DNA of 62,201 nucleotides, filler included. It is 17 parts of 17 records of this genome, joined end to end, with 100 filler letters (N's around TTAATTAATTAA, not from the genome) between each part and the next. Parts side by side here need not be neighbours in the genome. Positions count along the whole stretch, not along the records: positions 41,787 to 46,215 come from SRR16133337_48078; 16 more parts are not named here. The stretch is one strand, 5' to 3'. The position numbers and the translations under genes are program-made. Positions within the stretch are counted from its first letter, which is position 1, and every line of letters starts with the position of its first letter. Below, in pieces: positions 15,403-58,307 of the stretch. The notes beneath the pieces were generated by a model, which saw only the letters and a program-made list of their open reading frames with translations, was not told where the DNA came from and searched no databases.

Positions 15403-15563
15403 CTACTTGTGTAAAGTGCCATCTGTACCCCAAAGAGAAGTTATTGCTGCAACACCACATCCACCACTTTCTAACACGTCGTTACAATGTTCTGGCCCAA
15501 GTCCACCAAGTCCATAGATTGGAATCTTACATTTAGAAACAAAATTTGCAAAGTTGTCCCATC
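15403..15563 (-). CDS. Terminal exon of a thiamine-phosphate-synthase (ThiE/TenI)-like domain protein
   Basis: ttttttgtag| then (G)WDNFANFVSKCKIPIYGLGGLGPEHCNDVLESGGCGVAAITSLWGTDGTLHK*; P.Y.LGG and G..G.A.I..LW motifs; absent from the ORF track. Confidence 0.72.
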
Positions 15564-28941: not shown

Positions 28942-28973
28942 AATTGAATGTTTAATTAATAAATAGATGTATT

Positions 28974-29165
28974 ATGACAATTCCAACTATGGTAGGAGCA
29001 GGTTTAATCGTAATCGGTGCAGGTATAGGTATCGGTAGAATTGGTGGATCCGCAATGGATGCTATCGCACGTCAACCAGAAGCTTTTGGTAAAATTCAAG
29101 TGGCGATGCTTATTGCCGCAGCACTTATTGAAGGTATTGGATTTGCTGCATTATTTGCAGTTTAA
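28974..29165 (+). CDS. atpE: ATP synthase subunit c
   Basis: GxGxGxG repeats, ARQPE, ALIEG. Confidence 0.97.
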   Translation: MTIPTMVGAGLIVIGAGIGIGRIGGSAMDAIARQPEAFGKIQVAMLIAAALIEGIGFAALFAV

Positions 29166-29170
29166 ATAAT

Positions 29171-29208
29171 AAACAAACGGCGGCAACGGTTGGTTGTCGC
29201 TATTGTTT
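29171..29208 (+). promoter_or_regulatory. Intergenic stem-loop between atpE and atpF
   Basis: aaacaa-acggcggcaac-ggttg-gttgtcgcta-ttgttt. Confidence 0.55.
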
Positions 29209-29243
29209 AAAACAAAATGGATTAAATAACAATTTATAAACTT

Positions 29244-29744
29244 ATGGACAAGTTAATAGAGCAGTTTTCATTAGGATTGTTTTTCTGGCAATTACTATTG
29301 TTTATTAGTTTGCTATTCTTATTAAAAAAATTCGCTTGGAAACCCATTTTAAATGCGGTTAACGATAGAGAAGAAGGAATCAAGAAGGCATTAGAATCTG
29401 CGGAAGAAGCTAAAAAAGAAATGCAGTCTTTAAATGCAGATAACGAACGTATTTTAAAAGAAGCAAGAACAGAAAGAGATCGTTTGTTAAAAGATGCTCG
29501 TGAGATCAAAGAAAAAATGATTTCTGAGGCAAAAGAAGAAGCTCAAAAGCAAGCAGGAATTATCATCGACAATACAAAAAAGACTATTGAAGTTGAAAAA
29601 CAAGCAGCCCTTGCAGATTTGAAAACACAAGTAGCCGAGTTGTCTATCCATATTGCTGAAAAAATAGTAAAAAGAGAATTGAGTGCTGAAAAAGAGCAAT
29701 TAGCATGGGTCGATAAAATATTAGGAGACGTTCCCTTAAACTAA
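29244..29744 (+). CDS. atpF: ATP synthase subunit b
   Basis: GLFFWQ, KKFAWKPIL...RE, long coiled coil. Confidence 0.96.
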   Translation: MDKLIEQFSLGLFFWQLLLFISLLFLLKKFAWKPILNAVNDREEGIKKALESAEEAKKEMQSLNADNERILKEARTERDRLLKDAREIKEKMISEAKEEAQKQAGIIIDNTKKTIEVEKQAALADLKTQVAELSIHIAEKIVKRELSAEKEQLAWVDKILGDVPLN

Positions 29745-29751
29745 GAGTACG

Positions 29752-30309
29752 ATGAAAGGAACTAGAGCCGCATTGCGGTACGCAAAAGCAGTTTTGAATC
29801 TTGCAAAAGAGACGAGCAATGAAGTGGAGGTAAATAACTCTATGCAGTTAATTGCTCATACAATTGTGGGAAGTAAAGAGCTTGCGGTGGTATTAAAAAG
29901 TCCAATAATCAAAGGGGTCGATAAAATGAAGGCTTTAAAAGCTGTTTTTTCGGATGCTATAGATCCAATAGCTCTTGGAGTCATTGGTTTGTTAAGAGAG
30001 AACAAAAGATTGCCTTTGTTGACGTTAGTTGCAAAACAATATTCCATATTGTTTGATTTCGACAAACTAGTTGAAGTTGCTAAAGTAACAACAGCAATTC
30101 CTTTAACAGAGGATTTAAAAAAGAAAGTGCTTGTAAAAATAAAAGAGCTAACAGGAAATAAAGCTTCTATAGAAAATGTAGTAGATGCTACTATTATTGG
30201 AGGGTTTATTTTACGTGTGGGTGATCTTCAATACGACGCAAGTATTTCTAATAATTTTAACGAGTTGAAAAGACAATTTGACAACCGTCATTTTGTCGCA
30301 AAAATTTAA
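29752..30309 (+). CDS. atpH: ATP synthase subunit delta
   Basis: RYAKA, IIGGFILRVGD.QYDASI. Confidence 0.95.
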   Translation: MKGTRAALRYAKAVLNLAKETSNEVEVNNSMQLIAHTIVGSKELAVVLKSPIIKGVDKMKALKAVFSDAIDPIALGVIGLLRENKRLPLLTLVAKQYSILFDFDKLVEVAKVTTAIPLTEDLKKKVLVKIKELTGNKASIENVVDATIIGGFILRVGDLQYDASISNNFNELKRQFDNRHFVAKI

Positions 30310-30314
30310 TGAGA

Positions 30315-30477
30315 TATTTCCTCTAACTTGGTTTTCGGAAAATTTAGCCCATTATTTTTGTAGGTAGCAAGGCTAAATCTTCAAATATTGCATGGCTATG
30401 GTTGAAAATGGAAACGAAGCTAGAAGTAAAAAGAAACCGCTAAAAATTCGGAAAGGGTAGGAGGGAGTATATATCTA
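30315..30477. repeat. ~160-bp MITE/REP-like element between atpH and atpA
   Basis: Imperfect terminal inverted repeats; homologous in reverse orientation to 49781-50012 (gttttcgga.aatttagcc.att.ttttt...tagcaag.ctaaat.ttcaaa.at.gcat.gctatggtt). Confidence 0.7.
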
Positions 30478-30488
30478 AATAATAGAAG

Positions 30489-32066
30489 ATGGCAACAATT
30501 AAAGCCGCTGAAGTTTCAGCAATTTTAAAACAACAATTGACAAATTTTGAAGCTTCTGCTTCCTTAAGTGAAGTAGGAACTGTTTTACAAGTAGGGGATG
30601 GTATTGCTCGTGTATACGGTTTGGCAAAGGTACAATATGGAGAATTGGTTCAGTTTGAATCGGGTTTAGAAGGGATTGTATTGAATTTAGAAGAAGACAA
30701 CGTTGGAGTTGTACTTTTAGGTGCTTCCATTTCCGTGAAAGAAGGGTCTACAGTGAAGCGTACAGAACGTATTGCTTCTTTACAAGTTGGAGAAGGAATT
30801 GTTGGGCGTGTTGTAGATACCTTAGGAAACCCAATTGATGGGAAAGGACCTATTGTTGGTGAAACTTTTGAAATGCCTTTAGAACGTAAAGCACCAGGGG
30901 TAATTTTTCGGGAGCCTGTTACGGAGCCCTTGCAAACAGGAATCAAATCTGTAGATGCCATGATTCCTATTGGTCGTGGTCAACGTGAATTGATTATTGG
31001 TGACCGTCAAACAGGAAAATCAACCGTTGCGATTGATACCATCTTAAATCAAAAAGAATTTTACGATGCAGGCGTACCTGTATATTGTATTTATGTTGCC
31101 ATTGGACAAAAAGCGTCTACGGTGGCAGGTATTGTAAACTTATTTGAAGAAAAGGGTGCCTTAGCCTATACGACTGTGGTTGCGGCTAGTGCATCGGATC
31201 CTGCTCCCATGCAGGTATATGCTCCTTTTACAGGGGCGGCCATTGGAGAATACTTTAGAGATACGGGCAGACCTGCTTTGATTATTTTTGATGATTTATC
31301 AAAACAAGCTGTTGCTTACCGTGAGGTATCTTTGTTATTGAGAAGACCCCCTGGACGTGAGGCATATCCTGGAGATGTATTTTACTTACATTCTAGATTG
31401 TTAGAGCGTGCGGCAAAAGTAATCCACAACGATCCTATTGCCGCTCAAATGAATGATATTCCTGTTTCTTTACAAGGAAAAATTAAAGGAGGAGGTTCTT
31501 TAACGGCTTTGCCAATAATTGAAACCCAAGCAGGAGATGTATCCGCCTACATTCCTACCAATGTAATTTCGATTACAGATGGACAAATTTTCTTGGAGTC
31601 TGATTTATTCAACTCGGGAGTACGTCCAGCAATCAACGTAGGTATTTCTGTATCTCGTGTTGGAGGGAATGCACAGATCAAATCCATGAAAAAAGTAGCA
31701 GGTACTTTAAAATTAGATCAAGCACAATACCGAGAGTTAGAAGCTTTTGCGAAATTTGGTTCAGATTTAGATGCCGCTACAATGAATGTAATTTCTAAAG
31801 GACAACGCAATGTTGAAATTTTAAAACAAGCACAAAATGACCCTTATTCTGTAGAAGATCAGATAGCCATTATTTATGCGGGTTCTAAAAACTTGTTAAA
31901 AGAGGTTCCTGTAAACAAGGTAAAAGAATTTGAAGCAGATTATATCTCCTACTTAAATGCAAAGCATAGAGATACTTTAGATTCTTTGAAATCAGGGAAG
32001 TTAGAAAAAAAATCTTTAGAGGTTCTGGAAATGGTGGCTACTGAAATTTCAGCAAAATTTAATTAA
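30489..32066 (+). CDS. atpA: ATP synthase subunit alpha
   Basis: [51 protein letters not shown]. Confidence 0.98.
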
Positions 32067-32159
32067 AAAAGGAGCAGTGGCTACAGAATAGTTCGTTATG
32101 AGACTAACGACTCAGTACTAACTGGGCGGAGTATAATTACCCACTACTAAATACCAACC

Positions 32160-32208
32160 ACGAATTACGAATTACGAGCTACGAACTACGAACTACGAAC
32201 TACGAACT
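32160..32208. repeat. 7-bp tandem repeat ACGAA(C/T)T x7 at contig end
   Basis: acgaatt acgaatt acgagct acgaact x4. Confidence 0.88.
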
Positions 32209-37846: not shown

Positions 37847-38069
37847 CTGCGTAAAAACAAATGGCACAAGAATTATGGAGAGTGTTTGTCATGGGGACCA
37901 TTGTTAAATTAAGTTCGCGAANNNNNNNNNNNNNNNNNNNNNNNNNNNNNNNNNNNNNNNNNNNNTTAATTAATTAANNNNNNNNNNNNNNNNNNNNNNN
38001 NNNNNNNNNNNNNNNNNNNNNCTTTCGACTCATTTGTCTTGTAGATGGTGAAATCGTAAAATAAAATAG

Positions 38070-38678
38070 ATGAAAACTAAAAACTTACTTTTAATTTTTA
38101 CAAGAAATCCAGAATTGGGGAAAGTAAAAAGTCGACTTGCTAAAGACATTGGGGAAGAGAAAGCTTTGCTTGTTTATCAAGAATTATTGTTGCACACCAA
38201 GGTCATCACAGAAGAGTTGCCTGTTGATAAATGGGTTTTTTATTCAGAATACATCTTAGAAAACGATGTATGGGATTCCGAAAAGTACACTAAAAAAATA
38301 CAGCATGGAACTGATTTAGGGGAGCGAATGTCAAACGCCTTTAAAGAGGGGTTTTCGTGTGGATATAAGAACCTTATCATTATTGGGTCAGATATCCACG
38401 ATTTAGAACAACAGCATATAGAACTCGCTTTTGAAAAACTTGCCAATCAGGATACTGTAATTGGACCTTCAGAAGATGGAGGCTATTATCTTTTAGGAAT
38501 GAAAAAATTTATTTCAGCAATTTTTCAAAATAAAGAATGGGGAACGGACTCTGTGTTTCAAACGACATATAACGATTTGAAAAAAAAACATTCCATCGCC
38601 ATTTTGGAAATGTTAAATGATATTGATGTAATTGCTGATATAAATCCCGATTCATACCTAGCAAAGTTAGGTCTATAA
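38070..38678 (+). CDS. TIGR04282/DUF2064-family transferase (arsenosugar-cluster associated, CofC/GT-A-like)
   Basis: LIFTRNPELGKVKSRLA, QHGTDLGERM, IIGSD, IGPSEDGGYYLLGM, W.T..V, L.DID. Confidence 0.88.
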   Translation: MKTKNLLLIFTRNPELGKVKSRLAKDIGEEKALLVYQELLLHTKVITEELPVDKWVFYSEYILENDVWDSEKYTKKIQHGTDLGERMSNAFKEGFSCGYKNLIIIGSDIHDLEQQHIELAFEKLANQDTVIGPSEDGGYYLLGMKKFISAIFQNKEWGTDSVFQTTYNDLKKKHSIAILEMLNDIDVIADINPDSYLAKLGL

Positions 38679-38708
38679 TTCCGTCCACTTAACAACAACA
38701 GACCTACC

Positions 38709-38870
38709 GTGATAAAAATAGTTTCAATTTCTTGGAAATTAATTGGAAAACCTTTAGTTTTAACGACACAAAAAACGAGTATAGATATTTCCTTTTTAGA
38801 AAAAGGAATGTATTGAATTTAAGTGAATTTTGACAACAGATCCATGACAAAAAAAATAATGATCCCATAA
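38709..38870 (+). pseudogene. Relic of a T9SS type-A C-terminal sorting domain
   Basis: VIKIVSISWKLIGKPLVLTTQKTSIDISFLEKGMY*I*VNFDNRSMTKKIMIP*; IDIS.L.KG.Y...KKI signature with two in-frame stops and no upstream body. Confidence 0.65.
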
Positions 38871-38871
38871 A

Positions 38872-39684
38872 ATGATCCATAAATTAGAAGAAACTACAGC
38901 CTTTTTAAAAGCAAAGGGAATAAGTGTTCCAGCGATTGGAATTGTATTGGGAACAGGACTCGGAAAACTCGTTGAAGCCATTCAAGTTGACGTTTCAATT
39001 TCCTATAGTACGATTCCTAATTTTCCCATTTCTACCGTTGAATCCCATACTGGAAAATTGATTTATGGAACGTTGGCAGGAAAAAAAGTCGTGGCAATGC
39101 AAGGAAGATTTCATTTGTACGAAGGCTATACCTTAGCAGAAGTAACCTATCCCATTAGAGTTTTAAAATATTTAGGAATTCACACTTTATTAATTTCAAA
39201 TGCCGCAGGTGCCCTCCATCCCACTTATAAAAAAGGAGAATTGTTATTGATTCAGGATCACATCAATTTGCAAGGAGGTTCCCCTCTAGCAGAAAAAGGA
39301 ACAGAAGTATTTGGACCCCGATTTGTAGATATGTCTGCCCCCTATTCTAAAAAATTAAATGCCCTTCTAAAAAAGAGTGCCCTTCAAAATAACATTTCTC
39401 TGTACGAAGGAGTTTATGCAGCCGTTGTGGGACCGCAATTGGAAACCCGAGCGGAATATCGCTATTTAAGAATCATTGGAGCAGATGCGGTAGGGATGTC
39501 AACCGTACCCGAAGTCATTGTAAGCAATCAAATGGGGATTCCTTGTGCAGCTATTTCTGTACTAACCGATGAATGTAATCCCGATAATTTACATCCCATC
39601 AATATTTCTGAAATATTAACATTGGCAGGGAAAGCAGAGCCAAAATTAATCCAACTTTTTACAAGTCTGATAAAACAATTATAA
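38872..39684 (+). CDS. punA: Purine-nucleoside phosphorylase (trimeric type)
   Basis: IVLGTGLG, MQGRFHLYEG, SNAAG, GPQLETRAE, AVGMSTVPE; SVLTD (Asp at the position usually Asn). Confidence 0.93.
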   Translation: MIHKLEETTAFLKAKGISVPAIGIVLGTGLGKLVEAIQVDVSISYSTIPNFPISTVESHTGKLIYGTLAGKKVVAMQGRFHLYEGYTLAEVTYPIRVLKYLGIHTLLISNAAGALHPTYKKGELLLIQDHINLQGGSPLAEKGTEVFGPRFVDMSAPYSKKLNALLKKSALQNNISLYEGVYAAVVGPQLETRAEYRYLRIIGADAVGMSTVPEVIVSNQMGIPCAAISVLTDECNPDNLHPINISEILTLAGKAEPKLIQLFTSLIKQL

Positions 39685-39693
39685 AGCAAATAG

Positions 39694-40662
39694 ATGAGTT
39701 ATTTAGAAACAACACACCATGTATATAAAGAAGCGGCTCTTACACCTGATGTAGGACTATGCTGTACGACAAACCCTATTTGGGAATTGCCTGGATTGAA
39801 AATCCCAAAAAGAATGCAAGAGATGAATTACGGTTGCGGAAGTACCGTAAATTCTAGGGATTTATCAAATTCTCCAAAAATTTTATATGTGGGTGTAGGA
39901 GGAGGAATGGAATTGTTACAATTTTCGTATTTCTCCCGACAAAAATCGGGCGTCATCGGCGTTGATGTTGTTGATGAAATGTTAGAGGCTTCCCAGAAAA
40001 ATTTTGTAGAAGCCGAAAAACAGAATTCTTGGTTTAAAAGTGAATTTGTAGCGCTTAAAAAAGGGGATGCTTTAAAATTGCCTGTTGAAGACAATAGTAT
40101 TGACGTAGCGGCACAAAATTGCTTGTTCAATATTTTTAAAACAGAAGATTTAAAAAAAGCCATGGCAGAAATGTACCGTGTCTTAAAACCGCAGGGTCGT
40201 TTGGTTATGAGCGATCCAATTTGTGAGCAACCTATAAACGAAATATTGAGAAATGACGCTCGTTTGCGTGCTTTGTGTTTGAGTGGAAGCCTTCCGATGG
40301 CAGCCTATGTAAAAATGTTGACAGATGCGGGTTTTGGGACGATTGAAATTAGAGCTAGAAAACCGTATCGAATTTTAGATCCTAAAAACTATCCTACCGA
40401 TGAATTGATTTATATTGAATCCATAGAAGTAGCTGCAATCAAAGATTCAATGCCTGAAGATGGTCCTTGTATTTTTACAGGCAGAGCTGCTATTTATTAT
40501 GGAGATCAAGCTTTTTTTGATGATGGAAAAGGACATCTGTTGTTGAAAAATCAACCTTTGGCAATTTGTGATAAAACAGCAACAGCATTACAAAGTTTAA
40601 AAAGAGAGGATATTTACTTTAGTGAAGCTACCTATCATTATGATGGAGGAGGATGTTGCTAG
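39694..40662 (+). CDS. arsM: Arsenite methyltransferase of the arsenosugar-cluster type
   Basis: LCCTT, NYGCG, SAM-binding YVGVGGG, AAQNCLFNI, RVLKP.G, ALCLSG, C-terminal GGGCC. Confidence 0.88.
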   Translation: MSYLETTHHVYKEAALTPDVGLCCTTNPIWELPGLKIPKRMQEMNYGCGSTVNSRDLSNSPKILYVGVGGGMELLQFSYFSRQKSGVIGVDVVDEMLEASQKNFVEAEKQNSWFKSEFVALKKGDALKLPVEDNSIDVAAQNCLFNIFKTEDLKKAMAEMYRVLKPQGRLVMSDPICEQPINEILRNDARLRALCLSGSLPMAAYVKMLTDAGFGTIEIRARKPYRILDPKNYPTDELIYIESIEVAAIKDSMPEDGPCIFTGRAAIYYGDQAFFDDGKGHLLLKNQPLAICDKTATALQSLKREDIYFSEATYHYDGGGCC

Positions 40663-40677
40663 ACTGATTTAGGAATT

Positions 40678-41568
40678 ATGGAAACTTTTTTAAACCTATT
40701 TAAAGACTCTTTTGTAGCCTACGGAAACTATTTACTCTATGCGATTACACACCCTGCATGGAACAATTATTTTTATGCATTGATGGTGATCTCTTTGTTT
40801 GTATGGGGACTAGAAATTCTCTTTCCTTGGAGGAAAAAACAAGGAGTTTTTAGAAAGGATTTTTGGTTGGATACGTTTTATATGTTTTTCAATTTTTTTA
40901 TTTTTAATTGGATCCTATTTATAGCACTTTCAAAAGCTGCTGAAATGGCTTTTCAAAAAGGATTGGGTTTAATTTCTATTGAAATCCGTTCTTTTCAAAT
41001 AGTAGATTTAAATTCCTTCCCCTTATGGGTAAGATTGCTGCTCTTTTTTTTAGTGACCGATTTTGTACAATGGGCCACTCATATTTTATTACATCGTATT
41101 CCGTGGTTGTGGAATTTTCATAAGGTACACCATTCTGTAAAAGAAATGGGGTTTGCAGCACATTTACGCTATCATTGGATGGAGACATTGGTCTACAGAA
41201 CGACCTTGTATATTCCTTTAGCACTCTTAGGAGGTTTTCAGGTAAAAGAGGTCATTTTTGTACATTTGATGGCACTTGTTATTGGACATTTGAACCACGC
41301 CAATATCCAATTGAATTTGGGTATTTTTAAATATGTTTTTAACAATGCCGCCATGCATATCTGGCACCATGCAAAAGAAATTCCTATAAAACACAAATAC
41401 GGCGTGAATTTTGGAATTTCGTTAAGCCTTTGGGATTATCTATTTAAAACAAACTACATGCCTGCCAATGGTCGAGACATAGAATTAGGATTTGAAAAGG
41501 ACGAGAAATTTCCCAAAGACTTTATTTGTCAAGAGTTGTATCCTTTGAAAAAATTTCGCAACAAATGA
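40678..41568 (+). CDS. Sterol desaturase / fatty-acid hydroxylase family membrane protein
   Basis: His boxes HILLH, HKVHH, HLNHAN, HIWHH; NFG...WD.LF.T. Confidence 0.9.
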   Translation: METFLNLFKDSFVAYGNYLLYAITHPAWNNYFYALMVISLFVWGLEILFPWRKKQGVFRKDFWLDTFYMFFNFFIFNWILFIALSKAAEMAFQKGLGLISIEIRSFQIVDLNSFPLWVRLLLFFLVTDFVQWATHILLHRIPWLWNFHKVHHSVKEMGFAAHLRYHWMETLVYRTTLYIPLALLGGFQVKEVIFVHLMALVIGHLNHANIQLNLGIFKYVFNNAAMHIWHHAKEIPIKHKYGVNFGISLSLWDYLFKTNYMPANGRDIELGFEKDEKFPKDFICQELYPLKKFRNK

Positions 41569-41583
41569 GTTGAAAATGAAAAG

Positions 41584-41678
41584 TGTGGAATTGTTGAATT
41601 GTTGAATCGTGGAAAAACTGGCAACAGATAACCTGACTGCAAGACAAAAAGGAACAAAAAGACTGCAAGACAAAAAGG
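41584..41678. repeat. Short-repeat cluster at contig end (8-bp TTGTTGAA units; 18-bp direct repeat)
   Basis: tgtggaattgttgaattgttgaatcgtggaa; gactgcaagacaaaaagg at 41635 and 41661. Confidence 0.75.
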
Positions 41679-41854
41679 CTATAGGCNNNNNNNNNNNNNN
41701 NNNNNNNNNNNNNNNNNNNNNNNNNNNNNNTTAATTAATTAANNNNNNNNNNNNNNNNNNNNNNNNNNNNNNNNNNNNNNNNNNNNTACGTAAACGACAC
41801 TAATACTCTTCATAACGCCAAACTCACATCACCATTACCAATAACTCCTCAAAC

Positions 41855-43858
41855 ATGTCACGATCGCACTCTCCGATGCGAGAAGATTCTGGCGATGACA
41901 GACACAATGAGGATGAAGATCGTGAGGAAGGAGAACTCTCACCACTACATGACGATGACAGGTCAGAGGGGAACACAAAATTCAGTTCCCCATCTCTCTA
42001 GGTGCCATCTCTTACCAAATTAGTCACAGCGCGAAATTTCGGTCCAATAAAAAATTGCTCAAATTTGAAAGCTACCTTACAGAATATGTCTTAATAACCA
42101 AAACAATCAGTACGCGTTGCTCTACCACCCCAAATAACAAATGCCCGAAATTTCGGTCCCACACAGATTACACAGGCACGAAATTACGGTCCTGAAACAA
42201 AAATACACGGCGCGAAATTTCGGTCCAATGAAAATACACTTACCACAGAGTAGCAAACCCACGCAGGAACTGCACACACTTCGTACCTATCATAAAACAA
42301 ACAAACCAAGTCCCTCCATCATAACTCACACACTTGATGACAACGTTTGACAAGTCACGCAGCCTTACAAACCCACAGCGGGTCTGGCAGGTGGATTTGA
42401 CGCATGAATTGACAACCCCACCCACTATCACGTGTTTTCTCAGAGGAAAATTTGGCATAGTTTGCGTCTCGTACACCAAACACGGCAGAAGTCATCCGGC
42501 CCCACAGTTCTTTTACACGTTTACGAGCATGAATCAATATTTCCTCCGTTGGGACAGGTTAAGTGGGGATATGACGGATGTCGGAGCGGGTTTCAAAATG
42601 GGTTCCTGGAGGTGTGATGCACGTTTCCTGTGGCGCATAACGTTACAATATGAAGATTTTGTTCTCATTGCACAATATGGTGTCCCGCTACCACTCCTTT
42701 GGCAATTTTGCGATCCAAATAGTAAGTGATTCCCACAAAAAACTGAAACTTGTGAAAACTATTTATAGAATCCACTCTAAAAATAGAACGGTTATAAATA
42801 GAAAGTGAAATACAAAATTAAATAAAACCTTAAAACAATAGTAAAAACTAAAAATAGACTCTCAATTTGCACTTTAGAGAGACAGAACTCTACGAACTCT
42901 CCATAGCGTACCTCAGAACCAAGTTCCCTGAGGCATTTACCGACACAGATGATCTCGCACCCGCAGAAACAATTGCAGCCCGCAAGGACAAATTTGAACA
43001 CGATCTGCGTCAAAAAGATCGAGATGTACAGTTTGCTTTCGCTGAGGGAACTCTAACCCGAAAATTTTGTCTTTTCTTTGATCAATCACCACGCAATAAT
43101 AAATATCTGCCTGGAGGGTGTGTTAAGGCACTTAACTCAGTCATGCCTACGAAAGATTTTCCAGTTCAAGGGGCAGACTGGCCAGAGGTTGGAATGCGTT
43201 TGCAATTGACGGGCTCACCTGACAAGAAAAAACTTTGGAAACACGTCGTAAATGACATGTTGAGACAGTTCCACAAACGTACAGTTGCCAGAGAAAAACT
43301 TTCACTGATGGCGGCTCACTCCATAGACAGATATCGCGCGTTAGACAACCCCTCAGTGGATGAAACTCGCGATTTTGTCTCAGATATGACAGAGTCATGG
43401 CAGTTCTCAACATTTTTTGACGCAGAGTCAGCATGCCACATCCAAGAAAATGTTGTCGCTCTACTTGCACACAATACATATGGACGTTTTAAATCAAATG
43501 TACGTCTCGAAGATGGACCTCGCCCCTCAGTCTTGAAAGCTGATGAAATTAAAGAAGAAAAGGAGCGCCGAGCAAAACTCAATGAGGATAGAAAACCGTA
43601 GGTCCCCTAAAAACCCAAATCTCACCCCAACCCAATAATTTCACAACTATAAAAGCGTTAAAAGGGGGACAATATGACAATCAATCGTCTAAACATTCTT
43701 TATGTAACTTTAGTCGCAACAGATTCAAACCTCGAGGTGGCACCCAGAGATATCGGGGACGTACTTTCAAAAAACGGCGCCGCAATTACTTTTCTGGAAG
43801 TAGGGGAGGTAGAGGAAAAAGCTCGAATTTTCGGAGAGGCCGGGGGGGTCGTCGCTAA
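41855..43858 (+). CDS. DIRS gag-like protein, three predicted exons (41855-41961, 42878-43597, 43714-43858)
   Basis: Two phase-2 GT-AG introns join MSRSHSP...DDDR|ETELYEL...EDRKP|RNRFKPRGG...RGGRGKSSNFRRGRGGRR*. Confidence 0.65.
42029..42229. repeat. Four dispersed copies of CGAAATT(T/A)CGGTCC (palindromic core CGAAATTTCG)
   Basis: Copies at about 42032, 42146, 42179, 42213; the outer two share 20 bp gcgcgaaatttcggtccaat. Confidence 0.8.
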
Positions 43859-43906
43859 CTGCGCACAACTCCGGCCGCTTTTCCAGGTTTATGATTTACA
43901 ACAAAG

Positions 43907-46215
43907 GTGTGTAGATGGATCAGTGTAAGTGTTCCAACAGTATATATTTTGTTTAGACATCATTTCCGATTCCCAATCGAAAAATTCTCTAAACTACCAC
44001 AAGAAATACGAAAACTTTGTACAGAGATAATACACCCTGCCTTTTACAGAAAAAATAACATACGTCCTTATCATGTGTGGCAGACAAACGAACTCCGACA
44101 GTTAGCTTACGAAGGACGAACTCCAATAGTAACACAATTATTTCAAGGGCACGAACTCCTCTACCCAAATCGACTAGAAAAATGGCGGACATCAGCGCCA
44201 ACGTTTGCCACAAATTCGAAATTGGTAAAAGGTATACTTGAACACGGCCTTTCACTCTTCCCATACTTCACACGAGCACCACAAAGACAACGACCAGCAG
44301 AACTACACAAACTCAAAAAACAACAATTAGCAACTTATCGAGCATGTCCTCAACTAAAGACAAAATTATATCGGCTCTTAGAGACCGGAGTCATCGAAAA
44401 ATTAGATCCCCAACAGACAAAAAATGCATTTTATCATCATGTGTTCGCAATACCAAAGAAAAATGGCGACATAAGAGTGACAGCCAACCTGAAACCCCTC
44501 AACACATATTTGAAAGAAACACCAATCAAAATGCAAGGGGCTGGTCGAATCAAACTTCTCGTATTCCAAAATTGCTTGTTCACGTCCGAGGATTTTACAG
44601 ATGCGTACTGGACCATTCACATACAAAAAGCTTCTAGAAAATACTTGGCATTTTACTTGAATCACAACACAATTTGTACATGGTCAGTCATGCCGTTTGG
44701 ACTTAAACTCGCCACATTCATATACGAAAAAATACAGCGAGCGGTCAATGCAGAAATCAAAAGACTTAACATTACACGTTCAGCATATCTCGATGACGGC
44801 TTGACAATCACACCTCTACAACCAAACCAATTTGAAATTGCACAACAAAATCAATTCTTAGTTAACATAGTGTTTTTGGCATTGGGTTGGAAACTCAACA
44901 TAAAAAAATCGCATTTCAAACCAACAAAACAAATACAACACTTAGGTTTCGATTGGAACTCCTCCCAAATGACAATTTCAATACCAACAACAAAAAGATA
45001 CTCCATTTCAGAGTCATGCAAAACATTTTGGAAAAAAGGACAACATGGCAAAGTCATTACATACAGAGATATTCTTCATTTAATAGGGGTTATACAAGCA
45101 AATTACCTCGCCATCCCAAACATGAATATTCACTGTCGCCAATTAAACAAATGGCGACGAAAATTTGCCAAGTCACATTTCCCAATAAACAATTACGACA
45201 TAAAAATAACACTTCCATTTATAGTTTTACTTGAAATCAAAAGTTGGGTAGTCAAAATACACAGATACCATACAAACAAACTCATACCAGACAAATCATT
45301 TGCAACAATACATGTCGATGCTAGCGGCAAACATGGTTGGGGGTACAACATCGTCCACAATGCGCATAGATTCCATTTCAAGCAAAGTCAAGGCACATGG
45401 CCTCATTTTTTACAGGACACATCTATTAATTGCAAAGAGTTATGGGCGATTTTTCTTTCCTTAAAATCCATTCTGCAGGCTGAAAAGCTACACAACTGCA
45501 CTTTAGACATTGGTACAGACAACACAACCGCACTTGCATACTTCACGAAACAAACAGGAAAATTCCAACACCTCTTACAACCTGTGATTTCTACATTTAA
45601 TCTTCTGGAACATGACAATGTTAAACTCCGATTTTTCTGGATAGCAACAGATAAAAACACAGCAGACAAATATTCTCGTAATTTTCGGGATAGACATAAC
45701 TACACTCTACCCTACAACATTTACACACTAGTGACAAACATTTTCGGAAAACCAGACGTGGACCTATTTGCCTCTGCTGAAAATGCTAAAACAAAGAGTT
45801 ACGTCAGTGCAATCCCACAACCCAATGCACTGTACGTGGACGCTTTCCGCAATGACAAAAATTGGAACGATTTTAAAATAATATGGGCATTTCCACCAGT
45901 ACCATGCATCGATAAAGTCCTCACACGAATAAAATTTGATTCTCCACGCTTAGTTCTGCTGGTCGTACCTTTTTGGCCCAACAGTTCATTCCTAACGACG
46001 TGCTTTGACTTGTTAGTGGACTTTCCAACCTGGCTGACACGTCTGCCAATGCACAAAGACATTCACGACTCCCAACAAGATGCTTGTGCCAATTACCCAA
46101 TATTGGATCTAATCTTGATGCCATTATCCGGGAGATCACAAAGTATTTCGGATTTTCGTGCACAGTTACAGAACTCCTCCTTGCAAGTCGCGCCAAAGGA
46201 ACTAAACAAAATTAT
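43907..46215 (+). CDS. DIRS pol: reverse transcriptase - RNase H - adenine-methyltransferase-like domain, 3'-truncated; true 5' end uncertain
   Basis: FAIPKKNG.IR...NLKPLN, DFTDAY, MPFGL, YLDD, HLG; RNase H VDAS..GWG, INCKEL.AI, TDNTTA, NTADKYSR; MT-like VDLFAS..N, DAF, WAFPP. Confidence 0.9.
46017..46215 (+). CDS. Probable 5' part of the DIRS tyrosine recombinase, overlapping pol in another frame
   Basis: Frame open from 46009 to the contig end, ending ...KYFGFSCTVTELLLASRAKGTKQNY, resembling the L..S....T...Y start of DIRS YR; catalytic residues are off-contig. Confidence 0.5.
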
Positions 46216-46505
46216 NNNNNNNNNNNNNNNNNNNNNNNNNNNNNNNNNNNNNNNNNNNNTTAATTAATTAANNNNNNNNNNNNNNNNNNNNNNNNNNNNN
46301 NNNNNNNNNNNNNNNTCGTCATTTCGGTAAAAGCGTGTTCCATTAGCATCCAAAAAGAACATTTTAGAATAAAACTTTTCAAAAAATTAGAAGAGGAATA
46401 CTTTGCTTTTCTTCCAAAGCAAAGTAACATAACGCAGTACACTATAATACAAATAACAAAGTAAATCCTTATATAATATAATCCACCCGATTAGAAGCCC
46501 CTAAA

Positions 46506-47186
46506 TTAAAAAACATAAAACATCAAGCCCAAACGCACTATACGTAAATCAAGTAATTCACCTGTGTCGAGTTTTGTATTTTCTTTAAAAACAGGAACCA
46601 AAGAGTAACTAGCATAAAAATTCCAGGTTCCATGCCCAGCGGCTAAAGACAAAGCATATTGTAGTTTTTCAATTTCAGCAATATTTCTTTGAGTTACTGT
46701 AGTCCCATCAATTACATATTTAGCTTTAAAATCTAACACATATGAAAAAGTGATCCCCCCATAAATTCTCCAAAACCTATATTTCTCTAAGGTAGAAGTC
46801 CTCCATCGAAATTCAATCGGTATTTCTAAATGGCTTATCTTATACCGATTGCTATCATAAGTCGTTAGGATTCGAAAACTAGAAGTAGCGTTCTCCTCTT
46901 TAATAAACAGATTTTGATTGAAGGTGTTGTATGCGTATCCCACTCCCACCCCTATACCCATGTTACGTCTCTTATTAAAAGGTATATCCCTGATAAAACC
47001 CAAAGAAATTCCATAAGAAAATCCATTTTGGAAGAAACCTTTAGGCGTATTGGAAAACAAATTATAGTGAACTCCAAAATACAATTGATCTTCTAAATAT
47101 TTTGGATCAATTCTTAGCGAATCTGTTTGAGAAAAAACAGAAAGTGTAAACCCTGTAAAAGAGGCAAACAATAAAAAAAATTTCAT
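46506..47186 (-). CDS. Outer-membrane beta-barrel (Bacteroidota porin family / PorT-like)
   Basis: Signal peptide, KYLEDQLY, GFIRDIP.N..RN, EIPIEFRWRTS, terminal YVF. Confidence 0.82.
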   Translation of the reverse strand: MKFFLLFASFTGFTLSVFSQTDSLRIDPKYLEDQLYFGVHYNLFSNTPKGFFQNGFSYGISLGFIRDIPFNKRRNMGIGVGVGYAYNTFNQNLFIKEENATSSFRILTTYDSNRYKISHLEIPIEFRWRTSTLEKYRFWRIYGGITFSYVLDFKAKYVIDGTTVTQRNIAEIEKLQYALSLAAGHGTWNFYASYSLVPVFKENTKLDTGELLDLRIVRLGLMFYVF

Positions 47187-47249
47187 ATCTCTATAGATGA
47201 TGATGATTCTATTTTAAAAATTAGTACAATTCAAAACGAATGTAAAACA

Positions 47250-47283
47250 AAAAAGACATCTGTGAAATGACAGATGTCTTTTT
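47250..47283 (-). terminator. Intrinsic terminator after exbD (symmetric, probably bidirectional)
   Basis: aaaaagacatctgt-gaaatg-acagatgtcttttt perfect inverted repeat. Confidence 0.85.
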
Positions 47284-47303
47284 AAATACCCTCCAAATAG
47301 AAT

Positions 47304-47786
47304 TCATTTGATGTTTTCAGCCAAATCTCCCTTACGGGTAGAATAACTTATTTTAAGAGCGTTAATATCTCTTAATTCAGTTCTTATATCGTGTATGGTA
47401 CCCACACCACATTTTATATCAGACTTGATAGAAGTGGTCATATATGGAATTTCTTCTGGGTTGTGTTTTTCTTGTTCAGAATAAATAAAACTAGCAATAT
47501 CCTTGATGGTTGCAATTTTATCATTCAACTGAATTTTATCCCCTGATCCTAATTTAGGCTGATCTTCAGGCTTTGCTTTCCCCACATAAATGGTACTTAC
47601 CAAACTTTTATGCTCTAATTTTTTCACCTCAGTTGCATTTGGCAATTTTGGTGCTTTGATTTTTAAATCCGTTTCTCTCATGGTTGTTGTTACCATAAAG
47701 AAAAACAATAACATAAATACAATATCTGGCAGAGCCGCCGTATTTACTGCGGGCAATCCTTTTTTCTTTTTTGCAAATTTAGACAT
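47304..47786 (-). CDS. exbD: ExbD/TolR family biopolymer transport protein
   Basis: NTAALPDIVFMLLFFFMVTT. Confidence 0.92.
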   Translation of the reverse strand: MSKFAKKKKGLPAVNTAALPDIVFMLLFFFMVTTTMRETDLKIKAPKLPNATEVKKLEHKSLVSTIYVGKAKPEDQPKLGSGDKIQLNDKIATIKDIASFIYSEQEKHNPEEIPYMTTSIKSDIKCGVGTIHDIRTELRDINALKISYSTRKGDLAENIK

Positions 47787-47794
47787 CTCGTAAA

Positions 47795-48424
47795 TTATTT
47801 AGTAGGTTCTGCATCAGAAATAATCTGAGGATAAGCATCTTTCACTTCCTTAATTACAGCCTTTAATTCCTCCTTTTCTTTTGAGTCCAAAAGTAATAAG
47901 TCTTCAAAACTCATTCCTGCATACTTTCCTTTAATTTTTGTTTTTGCATAACGATTTCTTAATTCAGTATATGCAGAAAGCAATTCATTTTGAACCGTAA
48001 TGTACATCCCATAGGAGGTACCTCTATCACTTTGTACAGAAATAACCGCTTTGTTTGGATGATCTGAAGAGGTATCCAATTTTTTACCATTGCAATAAGT
48101 ACAGATACTTCCAGGAACACCATCAACAGTCTTTCCAATACCTCCTCCATTGTTAATAAAATCTAGGGTGGCTTGTTTGAGATTTTTGAGATCCATTTCT
48201 TCGTCTTCTACCAATAATTGATCTTTTCTATTGATATTGATTTCAAAAATGTTTTTCCTTTTTATAATCGGCGGGATAAAATCTTCTGGCGGTTTTTCAG
48301 ATAATTTACGAGAAACTCCTGAATCTACATCCATCGTAGTTGTTACCAAAAAAAAGATCAGCAACAGGAAAGCAATATCTGCCATGGATCCTGCATTAAT
48401 TTCAGCGTTTTCTCTTCTAGCCAT
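47795..48424 (-). CDS. exbD: ExbD/TolR family biopolymer transport protein
   Basis: INAGSMADIAFLLLIFFLVTT, DRGTSY. Confidence 0.92.
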   Translation of the reverse strand: MARRENAEINAGSMADIAFLLLIFFLVTTTMDVDSGVSRKLSEKPPEDFIPPIIKRKNIFEININRKDQLLVEDEEMDLKNLKQATLDFINNGGGIGKTVDGVPGSICTYCNGKKLDTSSDHPNKAVISVQSDRGTSYGMYITVQNELLSAYTELRNRYAKTKIKGKYAGMSFEDLLLLDSKEKEELKAVIKEVKDAYPQIISDAEPTK

Positions 48425-48431
48425 TTCTTAT

Positions 48432-48890
48432 TTATTTTATAATTGATTTTACAGCTCCTAAAACAATTGCAATAATCGCACTAGCTCCTAATAACAAGGT
48501 ATACCAAATACCTGTACTTACCCATTTAGAGGGACTGCCTGCTTCACCACCTTCTAAAATCTCTCCAGTCACATCTTTGACAGCAAGATCTGATGCCAAA
48601 CCATAAGAAATCCCCAATAAAATTCCAAGGATTACGAAACCTATTAGAGTTTTCTTTAATACTTCTGGCTTTTTTAACAAACTAAAGATAGAGAAAAGTA
48701 CAGCAATTGCTGTAACTATGATTAACAATACGATAGAAAAGGAAACTAGCGGTCCAACAATGCCTAAGGTTCCTTGTCCTTCAATAATAGCATCATCACC
48801 AACGCTTAAAATCTTAATAAAGAAGTAAGCAGCAATCACCGCGATCAAAGCGACTAAGCCTTTTAATATTCTTGATATATTTGTATTCAT
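48432..48890 (-). CDS. Four-TM membrane protein in the exbB-exbD-exbD operon
   Basis: 152 aa, four hydrophobic segments, tightly packed between exbB and exbD. Confidence 0.8.
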   Translation of the reverse strand: MNTNISRILKGLVALIAVIAAYFFIKILSVGDDAIIEGQGTLGIVGPLVSFSIVLLIIVTAIAVLFSIFSLLKKPEVLKKTLIGFVILGILLGISYGLASDLAVKDVTGEILEGGEAGSPSKWVSTGIWYTLLLGASAIIAIVLGAVKSIIK

Positions 48891-48898
48891 AAGGATTT

Positions 48899-49627
48899 TT
48901 ATTTTTTGTGTCTAACCAAAAGGTCAATTAATGAGATGGAAGCATCTTCCATATCGTTTACAATTCCATCTACTTTAGAAATAATATAATTGTAAAATAC
49001 TTGAAGTATAATGGCTACAACCAAACCAAACACGGTTGTTAACAAGGCTACTTTAATACCTCCTGCAACTACTGTTGGAGAAATATCCCCTGCTGCTTGA
49101 ATCGAGTCAAATGCTCCAATCATACCAATCACAGTTCCCATAAACCCTAACATGGGTGCCAATGCAATAAATAAAGACAGCCAAGAAATATTTTTCTCCA
49201 ACAATCCCATTTGCACACCTCCATAACTAACAATTGATTTTTCAGCAATATCAACCCCTTCCTCTACTCTATCCAAACCTTGATAGAAAATTGAGGCAAC
49301 GGGACCTTTTGTATTTCTACAAACTTCTTTTGCCGCATCTACTCCTCCTGAAGACAAAGCTTCATCTACACTGGCTACCAATTTTTTAGTATTTGTGGTA
49401 GCCATATTTAAATAAATAATTCTTTCAATAGCAATTGCCAAACCTAAAATTAAGGCGATCAGTACAATTCCCATAAAAAAAGGTCCCCCTTCTATAAAAC
49501 GTTGTTTTAAAACTTGGTGAAAAGTTTCTGACTCTGTTGATTCTGCTACATTGAAGGCATAGGTGTTTTGAGTTAAACCAAAAAACAAGAAACCCGTAAT
49601 TGCAAAAATTGTAAATACTTTTTTCAT
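48899..49627 (-). CDS. exbB: MotA/TolQ/ExbB proton-channel protein
   Basis: FIEGG, APMLGFMGTVIGMI, GIKVALLTTVFGL. Confidence 0.93.
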   Translation of the reverse strand: MKKVFTIFAITGFLFFGLTQNTYAFNVAESTESETFHQVLKQRFIEGGPFFMGIVLIALILGLAIAIERIIYLNMATTNTKKLVASVDEALSSGGVDAAKEVCRNTKGPVASIFYQGLDRVEEGVDIAEKSIVSYGGVQMGLLEKNISWLSLFIALAPMLGFMGTVIGMIGAFDSIQAAGDISPTVVAGGIKVALLTTVFGLVVAIILQVFYNYIISKVDGIVNDMEDASISLIDLLVRHKK

Positions 49628-49692
49628 GGTGATAAAATTAATTTATTAATATAATTAAAAATCTAAAATAATTTACTCCTACTAAAACATTG

Positions 49693-49779
49693 CGGAGAGA
49701 AGGGGATTCGAACCCCTGTTACAATTTCTTATAAACACGCTTTCCAAGCGTGCGCCTTAAACCACTCGGCCACCTCTCC
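49693..49779 (-). tRNA. tRNA-Ser(GGA)
   Basis: GGAGAGGTGGCCGAGTGGTTTAAGGCG CACGC-TTGGAAA-GCGTG, long variable arm (TTATAA-GAAA-TTGTAA), GGTTCGAATCC, TCTCTCCG; CCA not encoded. Confidence 0.95.
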
Positions 49780-49780
49780 T

Positions 49781-50012
49781 AGATAAATCCCCTCCAACTT
49801 GTTTTCCAAATTTTTACTAGCCTTAGGCTCTAAGCTTTTACCTACTGTCTATCTGTCTTGCAGTCTTTACCAGTTGTAAGTTTTGATTTACGAACTACCA
49901 ACTACGATTTACGATTTCACCTTTTTTATTTAAAACCATAGCAATGCGATGTTTGAAAATTTAGTCTTGCTACAAAAAACAATTGGCTAAATTCTCCGAA
50001 AACGGAATTAGA
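49781..50012. repeat. MITE/REP-like element (copy of 30315-30477) interrupted by short tandem repeats
   Basis: Both ends match the atpH-atpA element in reverse; the middle holds ttacgaactaccaactacgatttacgattt and ctgtcttgcagtcttt. Confidence 0.68.
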
Positions 50013-50514
50013 TTACGTATGTTGTGTTTTTAGCGGACAGCAAGTAACAAAAAAATGTTGGTTCTTTAAAAAAAAAGAGGTGTTTTTTTGCTAATATTCT
50101 GTGTTTTTTACATTCTTTAATATTCGTGTCCAATAAAAAAGCCTCTATAATTGAGACTTTTATCATACCGTTGAAAGCTACCTTGTCCTTCTAAATCCCA
50201 TGGCAATGGTTACTCTGTCTCTGACTATTCATACCCCCTTTAGGGTTCTGCCTACTGTTACAACCGTTTCCCAGTCTCTTTGAATTATCGGATTGGTTTG
50301 TTCTAAATTCCCATCAAGTACAGTGGTCAATATTGGAATATACTCCGCCTGGTTAGAGAAATCGAAGGTGGTAAAGATCTATTCATGAAACCAACCTATG
50401 ATATAGTAGAACCAACTCTCCACTATCTATTTATTCCTAGCAATAGCTTAAAATATCATTATTATCAGGGGGCTGTAGTAACATCTTTTAGCATCTAAAG
50501 ATTACATTGGTGTA

Positions 50515-52776
50515 TTAAACATTTTGTTTTTTGATTAAGTTTAATGCGGAACCTTCATAAAACCAAGCAATTTGATTTGCATTGTAGGTATGATTTAATT
50601 TAATAGAATTGAAAGATCCATCGGTATGTGCAATTACTAATGTCAATTGTTTTTCTGGGGCAAAATCTTTTAAATCAGAGAAAGTAAAACGATCGTCTTC
50701 TTGAATTAAATCGTAGTCCGCTTCATTGACAAAAGTCAATCCCAGCATTCCTTGTTTTTTCAAATTTGTTTCGTGAATCCGTGCAAAAGATTTTACAATT
50801 ACAGCAACAACCCCTAAATGTCGAGGTTCCATGGCAGCATGTTCTCTAGAAGAGCCTTCTCCATAATTATGATCTCCTACCACAATAGAAGGTACTCCTG
50901 CGGTTTTGTATGCCCTTGCTGTAACAGGTACCGTACCATATACCCCTGTTAATTGATTTTTAACGGTGTCTGTTTTTTGGTTGAATGCATTGACAGCACC
51001 TATCAAACAGTTATTAGAAATATTGTCCAAATGTCCACGGAAACGCAACCAAGGCCCCGCCATAGAAATATGATCTGTGGTACATTTTCCAAATGCTTTT
51101 ATTAATAATCGAGCTTCTTTAATTTCAGTCCCTATAGGGATAAATGGAGTTAACAATTGCAGTCTCTCAGAAGTTTCAGAGACTTCAACATTCACACTTG
51201 ATCCATCAGTAACAGGTGCTTGGAATCCCGCATCCTCAACTGCAAAACCATTTGGAGGCAATTCATGACCTGTAGGTTCTTCTAAAAAAACTTCTTCTCC
51301 ATCCACATTGATCAGTGCATCGGTTAATGGATTAAAATCTAATCTCCCTGAAATAGCTACCGCGGCAACTATTTCTGGTGAAGCTACAAATGCATGGGTA
51401 TTTGGATTTCCATCTGCTCTCTTAGAAAAATTACGATTGAAAGAGTGAATAATGGAGTTTTTTTCTTGTCTATCCGCACCTTCTCTATCCCATTGACCAA
51501 TACAAGGACCACAAGCATTCGTAAATATCTTGGCCTCTAAATCTTCAAAAATCTTTATATACCCATCTCTTTCAATCGTATAACGTACTTGTTCAGATCC
51601 TGGATTGATCCCAAATTCTGCTTTTGAAACTAAACCTTTCTCAACGGCTTGTTTTGCGATAGAAGCAGCTCTTGAAATATCTTCATAAGAGGAGTTGGTA
51701 CAAGACCCGATTAATCCCCAATCAATTTTTAAGGGCCAATCATTTGCTTTTGCCACTTCTTTCATCTTAGAAACAGGAGTCGCCCTATCTGGCGTAAAAG
51801 GTCCATTGATATGTGGAGTCAACGTATCTAAATTGATTTCAATAACTTGATCAAAATAGGATTCTGGATTTGCATACACTTCAAGATCCCCTGTTAAATA
51901 AGAGGCAATTTTATTGGCTTGCTCAGCAACTTCTTCACGATTTGTAGCACGTAAATAACGCTCCATAGAAGCATCATATCCAAAAGTTGAAGTAGTGGCT
52001 CCTATTTCGGCTCCCATATTACAAATCGTTCCTTTACCTGTAGCGGACATGGATTTAGCACCTTCTCCAAAATATTCTAGAATCGCTCCAGTACCTCCTT
52101 TTACAGTTAAGATACCTGCTACTTTTAAAATGACATCTTTAGGGGCTGTCCATCCAGATAATTTACCTGTTAGTTTTACACCGATTAGTTTAGGGAATTT
52201 TAATTCCCAAGCCATTCCTGCCATTACATCAACAGCATCTGCCCCACCAACACCAATAGCAAGCATTCCTAAACCTCCTGCATTTACCGTATGAGAATCG
52301 GTTCCAATCATCATTCCTCCAGGAAATGCATAGTTTTCTAAAACTACTTGATGAATAATGCCTGCTCCTGGTTTCCAAAATCCAATTCCATATTTATTAG
52401 AAACAGATGACAAAAAATCAAAAACTTCTTTACTTGTTTTATTTGCAAATTTTAAATCCTCAACAGCTCCTAATTTAGCTTGAATTAAGTGATCACAATG
52501 GACTGTAGTTGGAACAGCTGCTTTCTTTTTTCCTGCTTGCATAAATTGCAATAATGCCATTTGTGCAGTTGCGTCTTGAAGAGCGATTCTGTCTGGTGCA
52601 AAATCTACATAATCTTCACTTCTTTTAAAGGCGGTTTTTGTAGTTCCCTCCCATAGGTGATTGTACAATATCTTTTCAGCTAACGTTAAAGGTTTCCCTA
52701 CTACTTCACGTGCGTTATCTACACGTTCTACCATACGAGAATACACTTCCTTAATCATCTCAATATCAAATGCCAT
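50515..52776 (-). CDS. acnA: Aconitate hydratase (Bacteroidota, mitochondrial-like)
   Basis: [45 protein letters not shown]. Confidence 0.96.
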
Positions 52777-53567
52777 AATCTTATTTAGTTATTTTCTTTG
52801 TATTATTATATTCCATCCAATTCGCTTCCCAAATTTCTAAGGGAACGGAATAGAACTAGATGCGAAGGTATGAAAATGCAGTTATTTTTGAAAGCTCTAA
52901 GCCCAACGAATCTATTAATTCAGTAAGATAAATGAAATTGTAGTTTATTAAGTATANNNNNNNNNNNNNNNNNNNNNNNNNNNNNNNNNNNNNNNNNNNN
53001 TTAATTAATTAANNNNNNNNNNNNNNNNNNNNNNNNNNNNNNNNNNNNNNNNNNNNCGCACAACGAAACATTGTACAAAAACCCGCATTTAAACCCCTAA
53101 AAAGGAGACCGGCTTTTTTTAAAACATCAAACGGTATGAACCAAAACATTCTGTAACCCAATGCTATAACACGGAGGAATTTGCGAGAATATGATTTAAA
53201 AGAAATTCACATAAACTTTGGCAAAAAACCCGGTGTAATACATCACACATGATTTTCATCGTACAAACGCATCACTATAGGCGACAAACTAACCCTAAAC
53301 CCAAAAATGAATTTTGATGGGGACAGAACCACAAAAACAAAATACAGAAAAGTTTGTTCGCAACGCATTGAAGAATCACACATACCGCCAACATGGCACA
53401 CAATACTCTAAAACAAACAAACGACAACTGCTCTGATAATATATACTTTACCCCTTCGCAAGTGATAATTTGATTGTTAAGACATGTGGACTCTAATGCA
53501 CAAAAAATGGAAAAGTAAACGTATTTTTGGCAAAAAAACGACACCACAAACCAACCGATACTATCGA

Positions 53568-58031: not shown

Positions 58032-58307
<276 letters not shown>

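Follow-up and report, generated by a model that had tools for sequence, protein, structure and literature searches.

Two candidate spliceosomal introns in the gag gene of a DIRS-like retrotransposon

Introns are erased when spliced RNA is reverse-transcribed, so that a retroelement keeping introns in an essential gene requires separate messenger and template RNAs. The locus described here raises this problem in a concrete form: upstream of a long reverse transcriptase (RT) frame, a gag-like coding region is broken twice by intervals that start with GT and end with AG. In this work, we ask whether these intervals are spliceosomal introns, what else could have broken the frame, and how an element of this kind would make its proteins and still pass its introns on.

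Source DNA and identity of the element

The window, that is, the whole stretch of DNA that was analysed, has 62,201 bases and is not continuous genome; it consists of 17 contigs of 2.0–9.0 kb and 16 artificial linkers, the latter visible as 32 runs of 44 N that flank in pairs the 12-mer TTAATTAATTAA (N44-TTAATTAATTAA-N44). ORFs fill most of six contigs (cover 0.80–0.98), and the four of these that were tested carry bacterial-type genes, among them Wzz/GNVR kinase, purine nucleoside phosphorylase, aconitase, ExbD, MotA/ExbB and PAS, with full-length Pfam matches on the bacterial contigs. Coding content is low in nine others (ORF cover 0.12–0.58), where only 2 of the 147 ORFs with 55 or more codons have Pfam matches. 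Each of the two is an exon whose splice sites are of textbook form: a PALP (cysteine-synthase-like) exon on the minus strand (58285..58070), bordered by ctgcttag/G and ATAG/gtaaga, and the last exon of a thiamine-phosphate-synthase-like gene (15563..15403), with tttttttgtag/G just before it. By eye, an intron on a neighbouring eukaryotic contig measures roughly 160 nt.

The poorly coding contigs are eukaryotic, and the record is a mixed assembly of a eukaryote and a bacterium, with the element in the eukaryotic part. With eukaryotic and bacterial contigs strung together by linkers across the window, nothing about the element can be read from what lies beside it. The host exons, with their ...TAG/G acceptors and one GTAAGA donor, indicate that the source organism uses splice signals of such a kind.

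Two contigs hold retroelements, at 41787–46215 (GC 0.41) and 9098–11552 (GC 0.476). The second has a single ORF of 812 codons in which AP-endonuclease and RT domains are found, and this LINE protein has 33 matches, the best of them at 30% identity. The first is the subject of this study, and its surroundings are as follows.

41687 to 41786, no strand: artificial linker, parting a bacterial contig from the element contig
41787 to 46215, plus strand: contig of the DIRS-like element, 4,429 nt, GC 0.41, both ends cut by the assembly
43957 to 46213, plus strand: pol, open to the contig end, with RVT_1 at about 44450–44950 and a Dam-like stretch at about 45692–45916
46216 to 46315, no strand: artificial linker, leading to the next contig (bacterial)

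The pol ORF (43895–46213) runs for 773 codons without a stop, in agreement with the original prediction of an uninterrupted pol, with the caveat that it runs off the contig end and is truncated there. A ciliate-type genetic code was considered and rejected, there being no in-frame TAA, TAG or TGA across these 773 codons. Residues 186–352 match RVT_1 (E = 4.6 × 10−13, 49.8 bits against a cut-off of 29.6), the stretch at about 45692–45916 matches Dam (PF05869) under the Pfam cut-off (E = 6.7 × 10−5, 23.1 bits against 28.1), and the Pfam RNase_H match is weak (E = 0.094). The best homologue of pol, P0001, aligns to residues 146–723 at 27% identity, across the RT, RNase H-like and methyltransferase-like regions and over the stretch where P0001 itself gives weak RT_RNaseH matches. 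Only two homologues of pol were found, at 27% identity, and the nearest proteins are DIRS-type.

A methyltransferase-like region downstream of RT is given as diagnostic of DIRS elements in the accessible portions of two papers (PMC3783388, PMC4157794). As described there, DIRS1-like and PAT-like elements have gag first and then a pol comprising RT, RNase H and a Dam-like region. Our element resembles them in having gag ahead of an RT-bearing pol, with RNase H and Dam matches that are weak or below cut-off; the difference is that here the coding region is broken by intron-like intervals and gag is without a homologue.

The 4,429-nt contig stops at 46215 within the pol ORF, and along it we found no recombinase and no terminal repeats, only chance-level repeats of at most 31 nt and four 29-nt repeats. 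There are no Pfam matches to a protease or an integrase in the element. No second copy is present within the window, no loci related to gag or pol within the metagenome and genome contigs searched, and no pol-related loci within viral contigs; nor was any sequencing run listed as containing this contig. The classification as DIRS-like that had been proposed from the sequence is upheld in its domain order only (RVT_1, the Dam-like stretch below cut-off and the P0001 alignment), any recombinase and terminal repeats falling beyond the contig. The accompanying claim of recent activity was not borne out: a single copy is seen, truncated at both ends. The contig is best explained as one end-truncated copy of a DIRS-order retrotransposon, with predicted gag, RT, RNase H and Dam-like methyltransferase.

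Coding blocks and intervening sequence in gag

In the reading examined here, gag is divided into three exons by two introns, all on the same strand as pol.

41855 to 41961, plus strand: proposed gag exon 1, ATG, 35 codons and 2 nt, acidic; periodicity chi2 19.9, p = 0.003
41962 to 42877, plus strand: proposed intron 1, 916 nt, CAG/GTCAGA ... CTAAA-N25-CTTTAG/A, phase 2
42878 to 43597, plus strand: gag exon 2, the central ORF, 239 codons and split codons; periodicity p = 7.7 × 10−7
43598 to 43713, plus strand: proposed intron 2, 116 nt, ACC/GTAGGT ... CTAAA-N21-CTTTAG/T, phase 2
43714 to 43858, plus strand: gag exon 3, RG-rich tail, ending at TAA 43856–43858; periodicity p = 1.5 × 10−4

No stop interrupts the central ORF between 42858 and the TAG at 43599–43601, and its first in-frame ATG, at 43143, is codon 96; the description of a frame that lacks a 5' ATG and stops at 43601 is accurate. 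So are the letters and coordinates of all four borders, gacag/gtcaga at 41961/41962, cactttag/a at 42877/42878, aaaacc/gtaggt at 43597/43598 and aactttag/t at 43713/43714. When the excision was recomputed, both GT..AG intervals proved to be in phase 2, and joining 41855–41961, 42878–43597 and 43714–43858 gave 107 + 720 + 145 = 972 nt, which is the predicted 323-codon ORF from ATG 41855 plus a stop, with AGA (R) and CCT (P) as junction codons. The acidic N-terminus and the RG-rich tail that had been noted are likewise present, with 16 R and 10 G among the last 47 residues. The central ORF has no homologue among 1.84 billion representatives, no Pfam family and no usable atlas match; no zinc finger was found in gag, and a single-sequence AlphaFold model of the central ORF is all-helical at low confidence (pLDDT 42.9).

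A first line of evidence on the nature of the intervals comes from the splice signals. On the plus strand of the 4,429-nt contig, GTA[AG]GT occurs at three sites only (42722, 43598 and 43925) and TTTAG at four only (42873, 43709, 43952 and 45502). Each of these strong donors has a TTTAG downstream within 160 nt, and the minus strand has no such unit. With a unit defined as GTA[AG]GT followed by TTTAG 20–200 nt downstream, a pattern that was chosen after the data had been seen, three units arose in 0 of 3,000 dinucleotide shuffles and two units in 15 of 3,000. The 3' ends of introns 1 and 2 are alike (CTAAA-N21-25-CTTTAG), and the splice pairs read CAG/GTCAGA...CTTTAG, ACC/GTAGGT...CTTTAG and, for a third splice-like unit between gag and pol, AGT/GTAAGT...GTTTAG.

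A second line comes from three-base periodicity, a test for which no training set is required. All three proposed exons are positive and all four tested intron segments are negative (p = 0.31 for 41962–42336, 0.94 for 42337–42720 and 0.98 for 42722–42877 in intron 1; p = 0.88 for intron 2). For exon 1, the observed value is reached by 2.05% of 2,344 windows from non-coding contigs, used as an empirical null, and the base position rich in G coincides with codon position 1 when reading starts at ATG 41855. Base composition follows the same borders, the introns being AT-rich and having a G content of 0.11–0.14 (0.12 in intron 2) against 0.21–0.29 in the exons (0.21 in exon 2). Codon usage was scored with a pol-trained measure that is weak for short segments, and gave +0.198 per codon for exon 1 (null p = 0.14) and p = 0.64 for intron 2. 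By this measure the tail frame scores poorly, at the bottom of the null windows over 43716–43856, which is what an Arg/Gly-rich sequence might give.

Canonical signals, restoration of the frame and the partition of periodicity between exons and introns together suggest that the two gag introns are probably real and spliceosomal. To this extent the original prediction holds, on evidence drawn from the sequence of one copy. That both introns have exactly the boundaries listed above is a narrower claim, to which we would give slightly less than an even chance.

One weak point is the donor of intron 1. GTCAGA agrees with the U1 consensus at 7 of 9 positions, as does the site at 42722, and 8 of the 173 GTs on the plus strand reach this score; GTCAGA is not among the three strong donors, and a better-looking GTAAGT lies within intron 1, 760 nt past it. 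Two further features lie inside this intron.

42025 to 42234, plus strand: four repeats with the palindromic core CGAAATTTCGGTCC, all in intron 1, with GAAnnTTC in three of the four
42325 to 42729, plus strand: 134-codon ORF in intron 1, ATG at 42337, ending at the strong donor GTAAGT 42722–42727

The GAAnnTTC repeats are of a form that we take to resemble a heat-shock element. The 134-codon ORF can be joined to gag in frame in two ways (spliced 42722–42879 or 42726–42877), and we initially favoured it as the true first exon. It was dropped from that role because it has no periodicity (chi2 1.7, p = 0.94), no codon bias and no homologue, and because its length is only marginally unusual, being equalled in 289 of 5,000 region shuffles and 153 of 5,000 local shuffles. 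Nor does it have a Pfam or an atlas match, and its single-sequence AlphaFold model reaches a pLDDT of 42.3. It is most likely a chance ORF.

Entry into pol and competing readings of the locus

The first ATG of pol, at 44531, is residue 213 and falls inside the RT domain; upstream of the conserved part, 70 pol codons are open and ATG-less, as happens in 88 of 5,000 shuffles. Two features between gag and pol bear on how this frame might be entered.

43662 to 43928, plus strand: 88-codon ORF in the frame of exon 2, overlapping the tail, with ATG 43674 inside intron 2
43925 to 43956, plus strand: third splice-like unit, GTAAGT ... TTTGTTTAG, 32 nt, between gag and pol

The acceptor at 43956 shares its phase with that at 43713, so that a splice from the gag donor 43598 to 43956 yields an open Gag-Pol frame of 1,028 codons to the contig end, with the 211-nt tail exon skipped; at any single junction, phases would agree by chance one time in three. 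The 88-codon ORF offers another route, as it continues into pol in frame via the third unit, for which the alternative donor AAG/GTGTGT at 43907 would give a length of 50 nt. Entry by 43598 to 43956 and entry by the 88-codon ORF with the third unit are both compatible with the sequence. Splicing of the gag donor into the overlapping frame was also considered and is not preferred, the sole acceptor starting the exon at 43748 and not being the first AG. By eye, there is no canonical −1 slippery heptamer in 43590–43600 or 43893–43925. Points that weaken the case made by the signals described above include the modest GTCAGA donor, the absence of stops in the tail frame along intron 2 and the length of the third unit, just 32 nt against the roughly 160 nt of the intron on a neighbouring contig.

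Genomic copies of retrotransposons are mostly defective, and this one could be a damaged copy in which a frameshift at the A4 run (about 43592–43598) and a rearranged or inserted 5' region broke gag, the GT..AG borders being coincidental and unspliced. A one-base change in the run itself (43592–43595) would fuse the gag frames without an intron, the RG-tail frame is open all through intron 2 (as in 561 of 5,000 shuffles, 11%), intron 1 lacks a strong-type donor and a single copy is seen. Yet coincidence would have to account for three donor–acceptor units that no shuffle reproduced, for drops in periodicity and G content that fall exactly inside the proposed introns and for a GTAGGT donor that overlaps the terminal stop of exon 2. 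Moreover, a pol that is stop-free and undamaged over 773 codons beside a gag broken twice is a poor fit to even decay. We regard this reading as unlikely.

A different gene model would leave intron 2 exonic: Gag would stop at TAG 43599, pol would be translated from ATG 43674 via the splice 43907/43925–43956, and the RG frame would be a purine-rich by-product. In its favour, the 88-codon frame 43662–43928 is open in only 84 of 5,000 shuffles, its codon usage exceeds that of 98% of stop-free null windows over 43716–43856, where the tail frame ranks at the bottom, and ATG 43674 is the first ATG past the stop of exon 2; with either donor, 43907 or 43925, pol stays open, for 830 or 836 codons. It leaves unexplained, however, the GTAGGT...CTAAA...CTTTAG that closes exon 2. 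In a variant of this model the 134-codon ORF would be gag exon 1, as its ending at GTAAGT and its two in-frame joins to gag would allow, but those joins depend on either a weak GAG as acceptor or a donor of lower strength, and among coding windows of 384 nt none of 665 (0 of 554 in pol, 0 of 111 in gag) is as flat in periodicity as this ORF, which has no codon bias either. Overall, we consider the alternative gene model improbable.

The locus could also be a DIRS-derived host gene that gained its introns after mobility had ceased. Introns are normal in host genes, only one copy is seen and the contig is without terminal repeats or recombinase, although copy number is no guide in so fragmentary an assembly. 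Domesticated genes seldom retain a whole pol. Here, RT and the methyltransferase-like region are retained in one long ORF, and gag followed by pol in separate frames is the layout of a mobile element, which together make domestication a very improbable account. Last, a chimeric contig or indel errors breaking gag would fit a highly fragmented, mixed assembly, but is the least probable of these accounts: the long ORFs left intact on the bacterial contigs (cover 0.80–0.98, with full-length Pfam matches) mean that indel errors are rare in this assembly, pol is unbroken and splice signals stand at the breaks.

Messenger and template RNAs

In the preferred reading, with gag in three coding blocks and two real spliceosomal introns between them (41962–42877 and 43598–43713), the host spliceosome would excise both introns to give an mRNA for the 323-residue Gag. 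The unspliced transcript, from which no Gag could be made, would act as the template for reverse transcription, and the introns would be inherited because the unspliced copy is the one reverse-transcribed. Pol, lacking a start codon, would be entered by a splice onto the 43956 acceptor, for which the gag donor 43598 is the simplest partner, and skipping of the tail exon in that splice would give Gag-Pol. That unspliced genomic RNA would be kept apart from spliced mRNAs, as the original prediction proposed, is the natural inference.

A stronger version of this scheme, which we put forward tentatively and hold to be doubtful as a whole, is a DIRS-order element that would depend wholly on the host spliceosome. 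Its donor at 43598 would be spliced either to 43713, for Gag with the RG tail, or to 43956, for Gag-Pol, so that alternative splicing would replace frameshifting or readthrough; the untranslatable unspliced RNA would serve as template only, and the heat-shock-element-like cluster would lie in intron 1.

Elements of this scheme have counterparts elsewhere. Retroviruses use the unspliced transcript as template and translate from spliced ones; their unspliced RNA is also the messenger for Gag and Gag-Pol, whereas under our proposal the unspliced RNA could not be. Penelope-like elements belong to a different RT lineage, with a telomerase-like RT, and carry a GIY-YIG endonuclease. Pol here has no GIY-YIG match up to the contig end at 46215, which precedes any downstream, C-terminal domain. 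Penelope-like elements are retroelements noted for spliceosomal introns, as stated in the accessible portion of PMC4209133.

The closest known mechanism, as far as the accessible portions of the relevant papers describe it, is the alternative splicing by which Ty1/copia elements make extra Gag, and which in Arabidopsis EVD and barley BARE sets the Gag:Pol ratio (PMC5580714, PMC3735527). The likeness is that a spliceosomal intron is kept, spliced RNA is used for Gag and unspliced RNA is replicated (PMC5580714, PMC3735527). Whereas the unspliced RNA of EVD and BARE encodes a one-frame Gag-Pol and their splicing takes out part of pol, gag would here be unreadable in unspliced RNA and Gag-Pol would be splice-dependent as well, in an element of a different order.

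For DIRS elements themselves, the word 'intron' is absent from the accessible text of three papers (PMC3783388, PMC4157794, PMC2685390), and the available portion of a study of DIRS-1 describes artificial marker introns only (PMC7192593). We found no report of natural introns in DIRS elements in the searchable literature, outside which lie subscription papers and Repbase entries.

The separation of messenger from template is already known from retroviruses, some Ty1/copia elements and Penelope-like elements. If the introns described here are confirmed, a third retroelement order would join the list of those that keep introns, and the element would offer a case of a genomic RNA that does not serve even to make Gag, with a bearing on how DIRS elements choose their template.

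Make-up of the window and origin of its contigs

The window holds 17 contigs linked by 16 artificial spacers of the form N44-TTAATTAATTAA-N44. Gene adjacency across these linkers is meaningless. Two examples are:

41687-41786 and 46216-46315, artificial linkers, each a six-frame stop spacer

The contigs with low ORF cover (nine, 0.12-0.58) carry two exons that are parts of ordinary eukaryotic genes:

58285..58070, minus strand, PALP/cysteine-synthase-like exon, acceptor ...TAG, donor GTAAGA
15563..15403, minus strand, last exon of a thiamine-phosphate-synthase-like gene, with a poly-T ...TAG acceptor

These two exons identify the nine contigs of low ORF cover as eukaryotic. Six further contigs are densely coding (ORF cover 0.80-0.98):

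1-3335, 16213-25189, 27779-32208, 38022-41686, 46316-52956 and 59883-62201, densely coding contigs
49693-49779, minus strand, tRNA within the densely coding contigs

Bacterial-type genes were found on the four of these contigs that were tested, encoding Wzz/GNVR kinase, PNP, aconitase, ExbD, MotA/ExbB and PAS proteins, and these contigs belong to a bacterium that was co-assembled with the eukaryote.

A second retroelement

A further contig, with a GC content of 0.476, carries a LINE-type retroelement:

9098-11552, plus strand, single 812-codon ORF, open at both ends

Two domains are recognised in the ORF, an AP-endonuclease of the Exo_endo_phos type (4.6e-16) and an RT domain of which only the beginning is present (1.2e-11), and its protein shares only 30% identity with its closest homologue.

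Sequence features within the DIRS-like element

Three features were located in the DIRS-like retrotransposon, two of them in the proposed first intron of gag (41962-42877):

44290-44305 and 45951-45966, perfect 16-nt inverted repeat in pol
42325-42729, plus strand, 134-codon ORF whose 3' end lies exactly at a GTAAGT donor
42025-42234, plus strand, a repeat of roughly 29 nt, in four copies, whose palindromic core is CGAAATTTCGGTCC

The inverted repeat, recovered by self-search with an E value of 0.23, is probably due to chance. Periodicity, codon bias and a homologue were all looked for in the 134-codon ORF, and none was found; it is probably a chance ORF, although it could be the leader exon of an alternative transcript.

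Three of the four roughly 29-nt copies contain GAAnnTTC, which resembles a heat-shock-element half-site pair, and the array is placed roughly 100-300 nt upstream of ATG 42337. A heat-shock promoter has been reported, according to a title cited in PMC2685390, in the terminal repeats of Dictyostelium DIRS-1. In the present element all four copies lie inside the proposed first intron.
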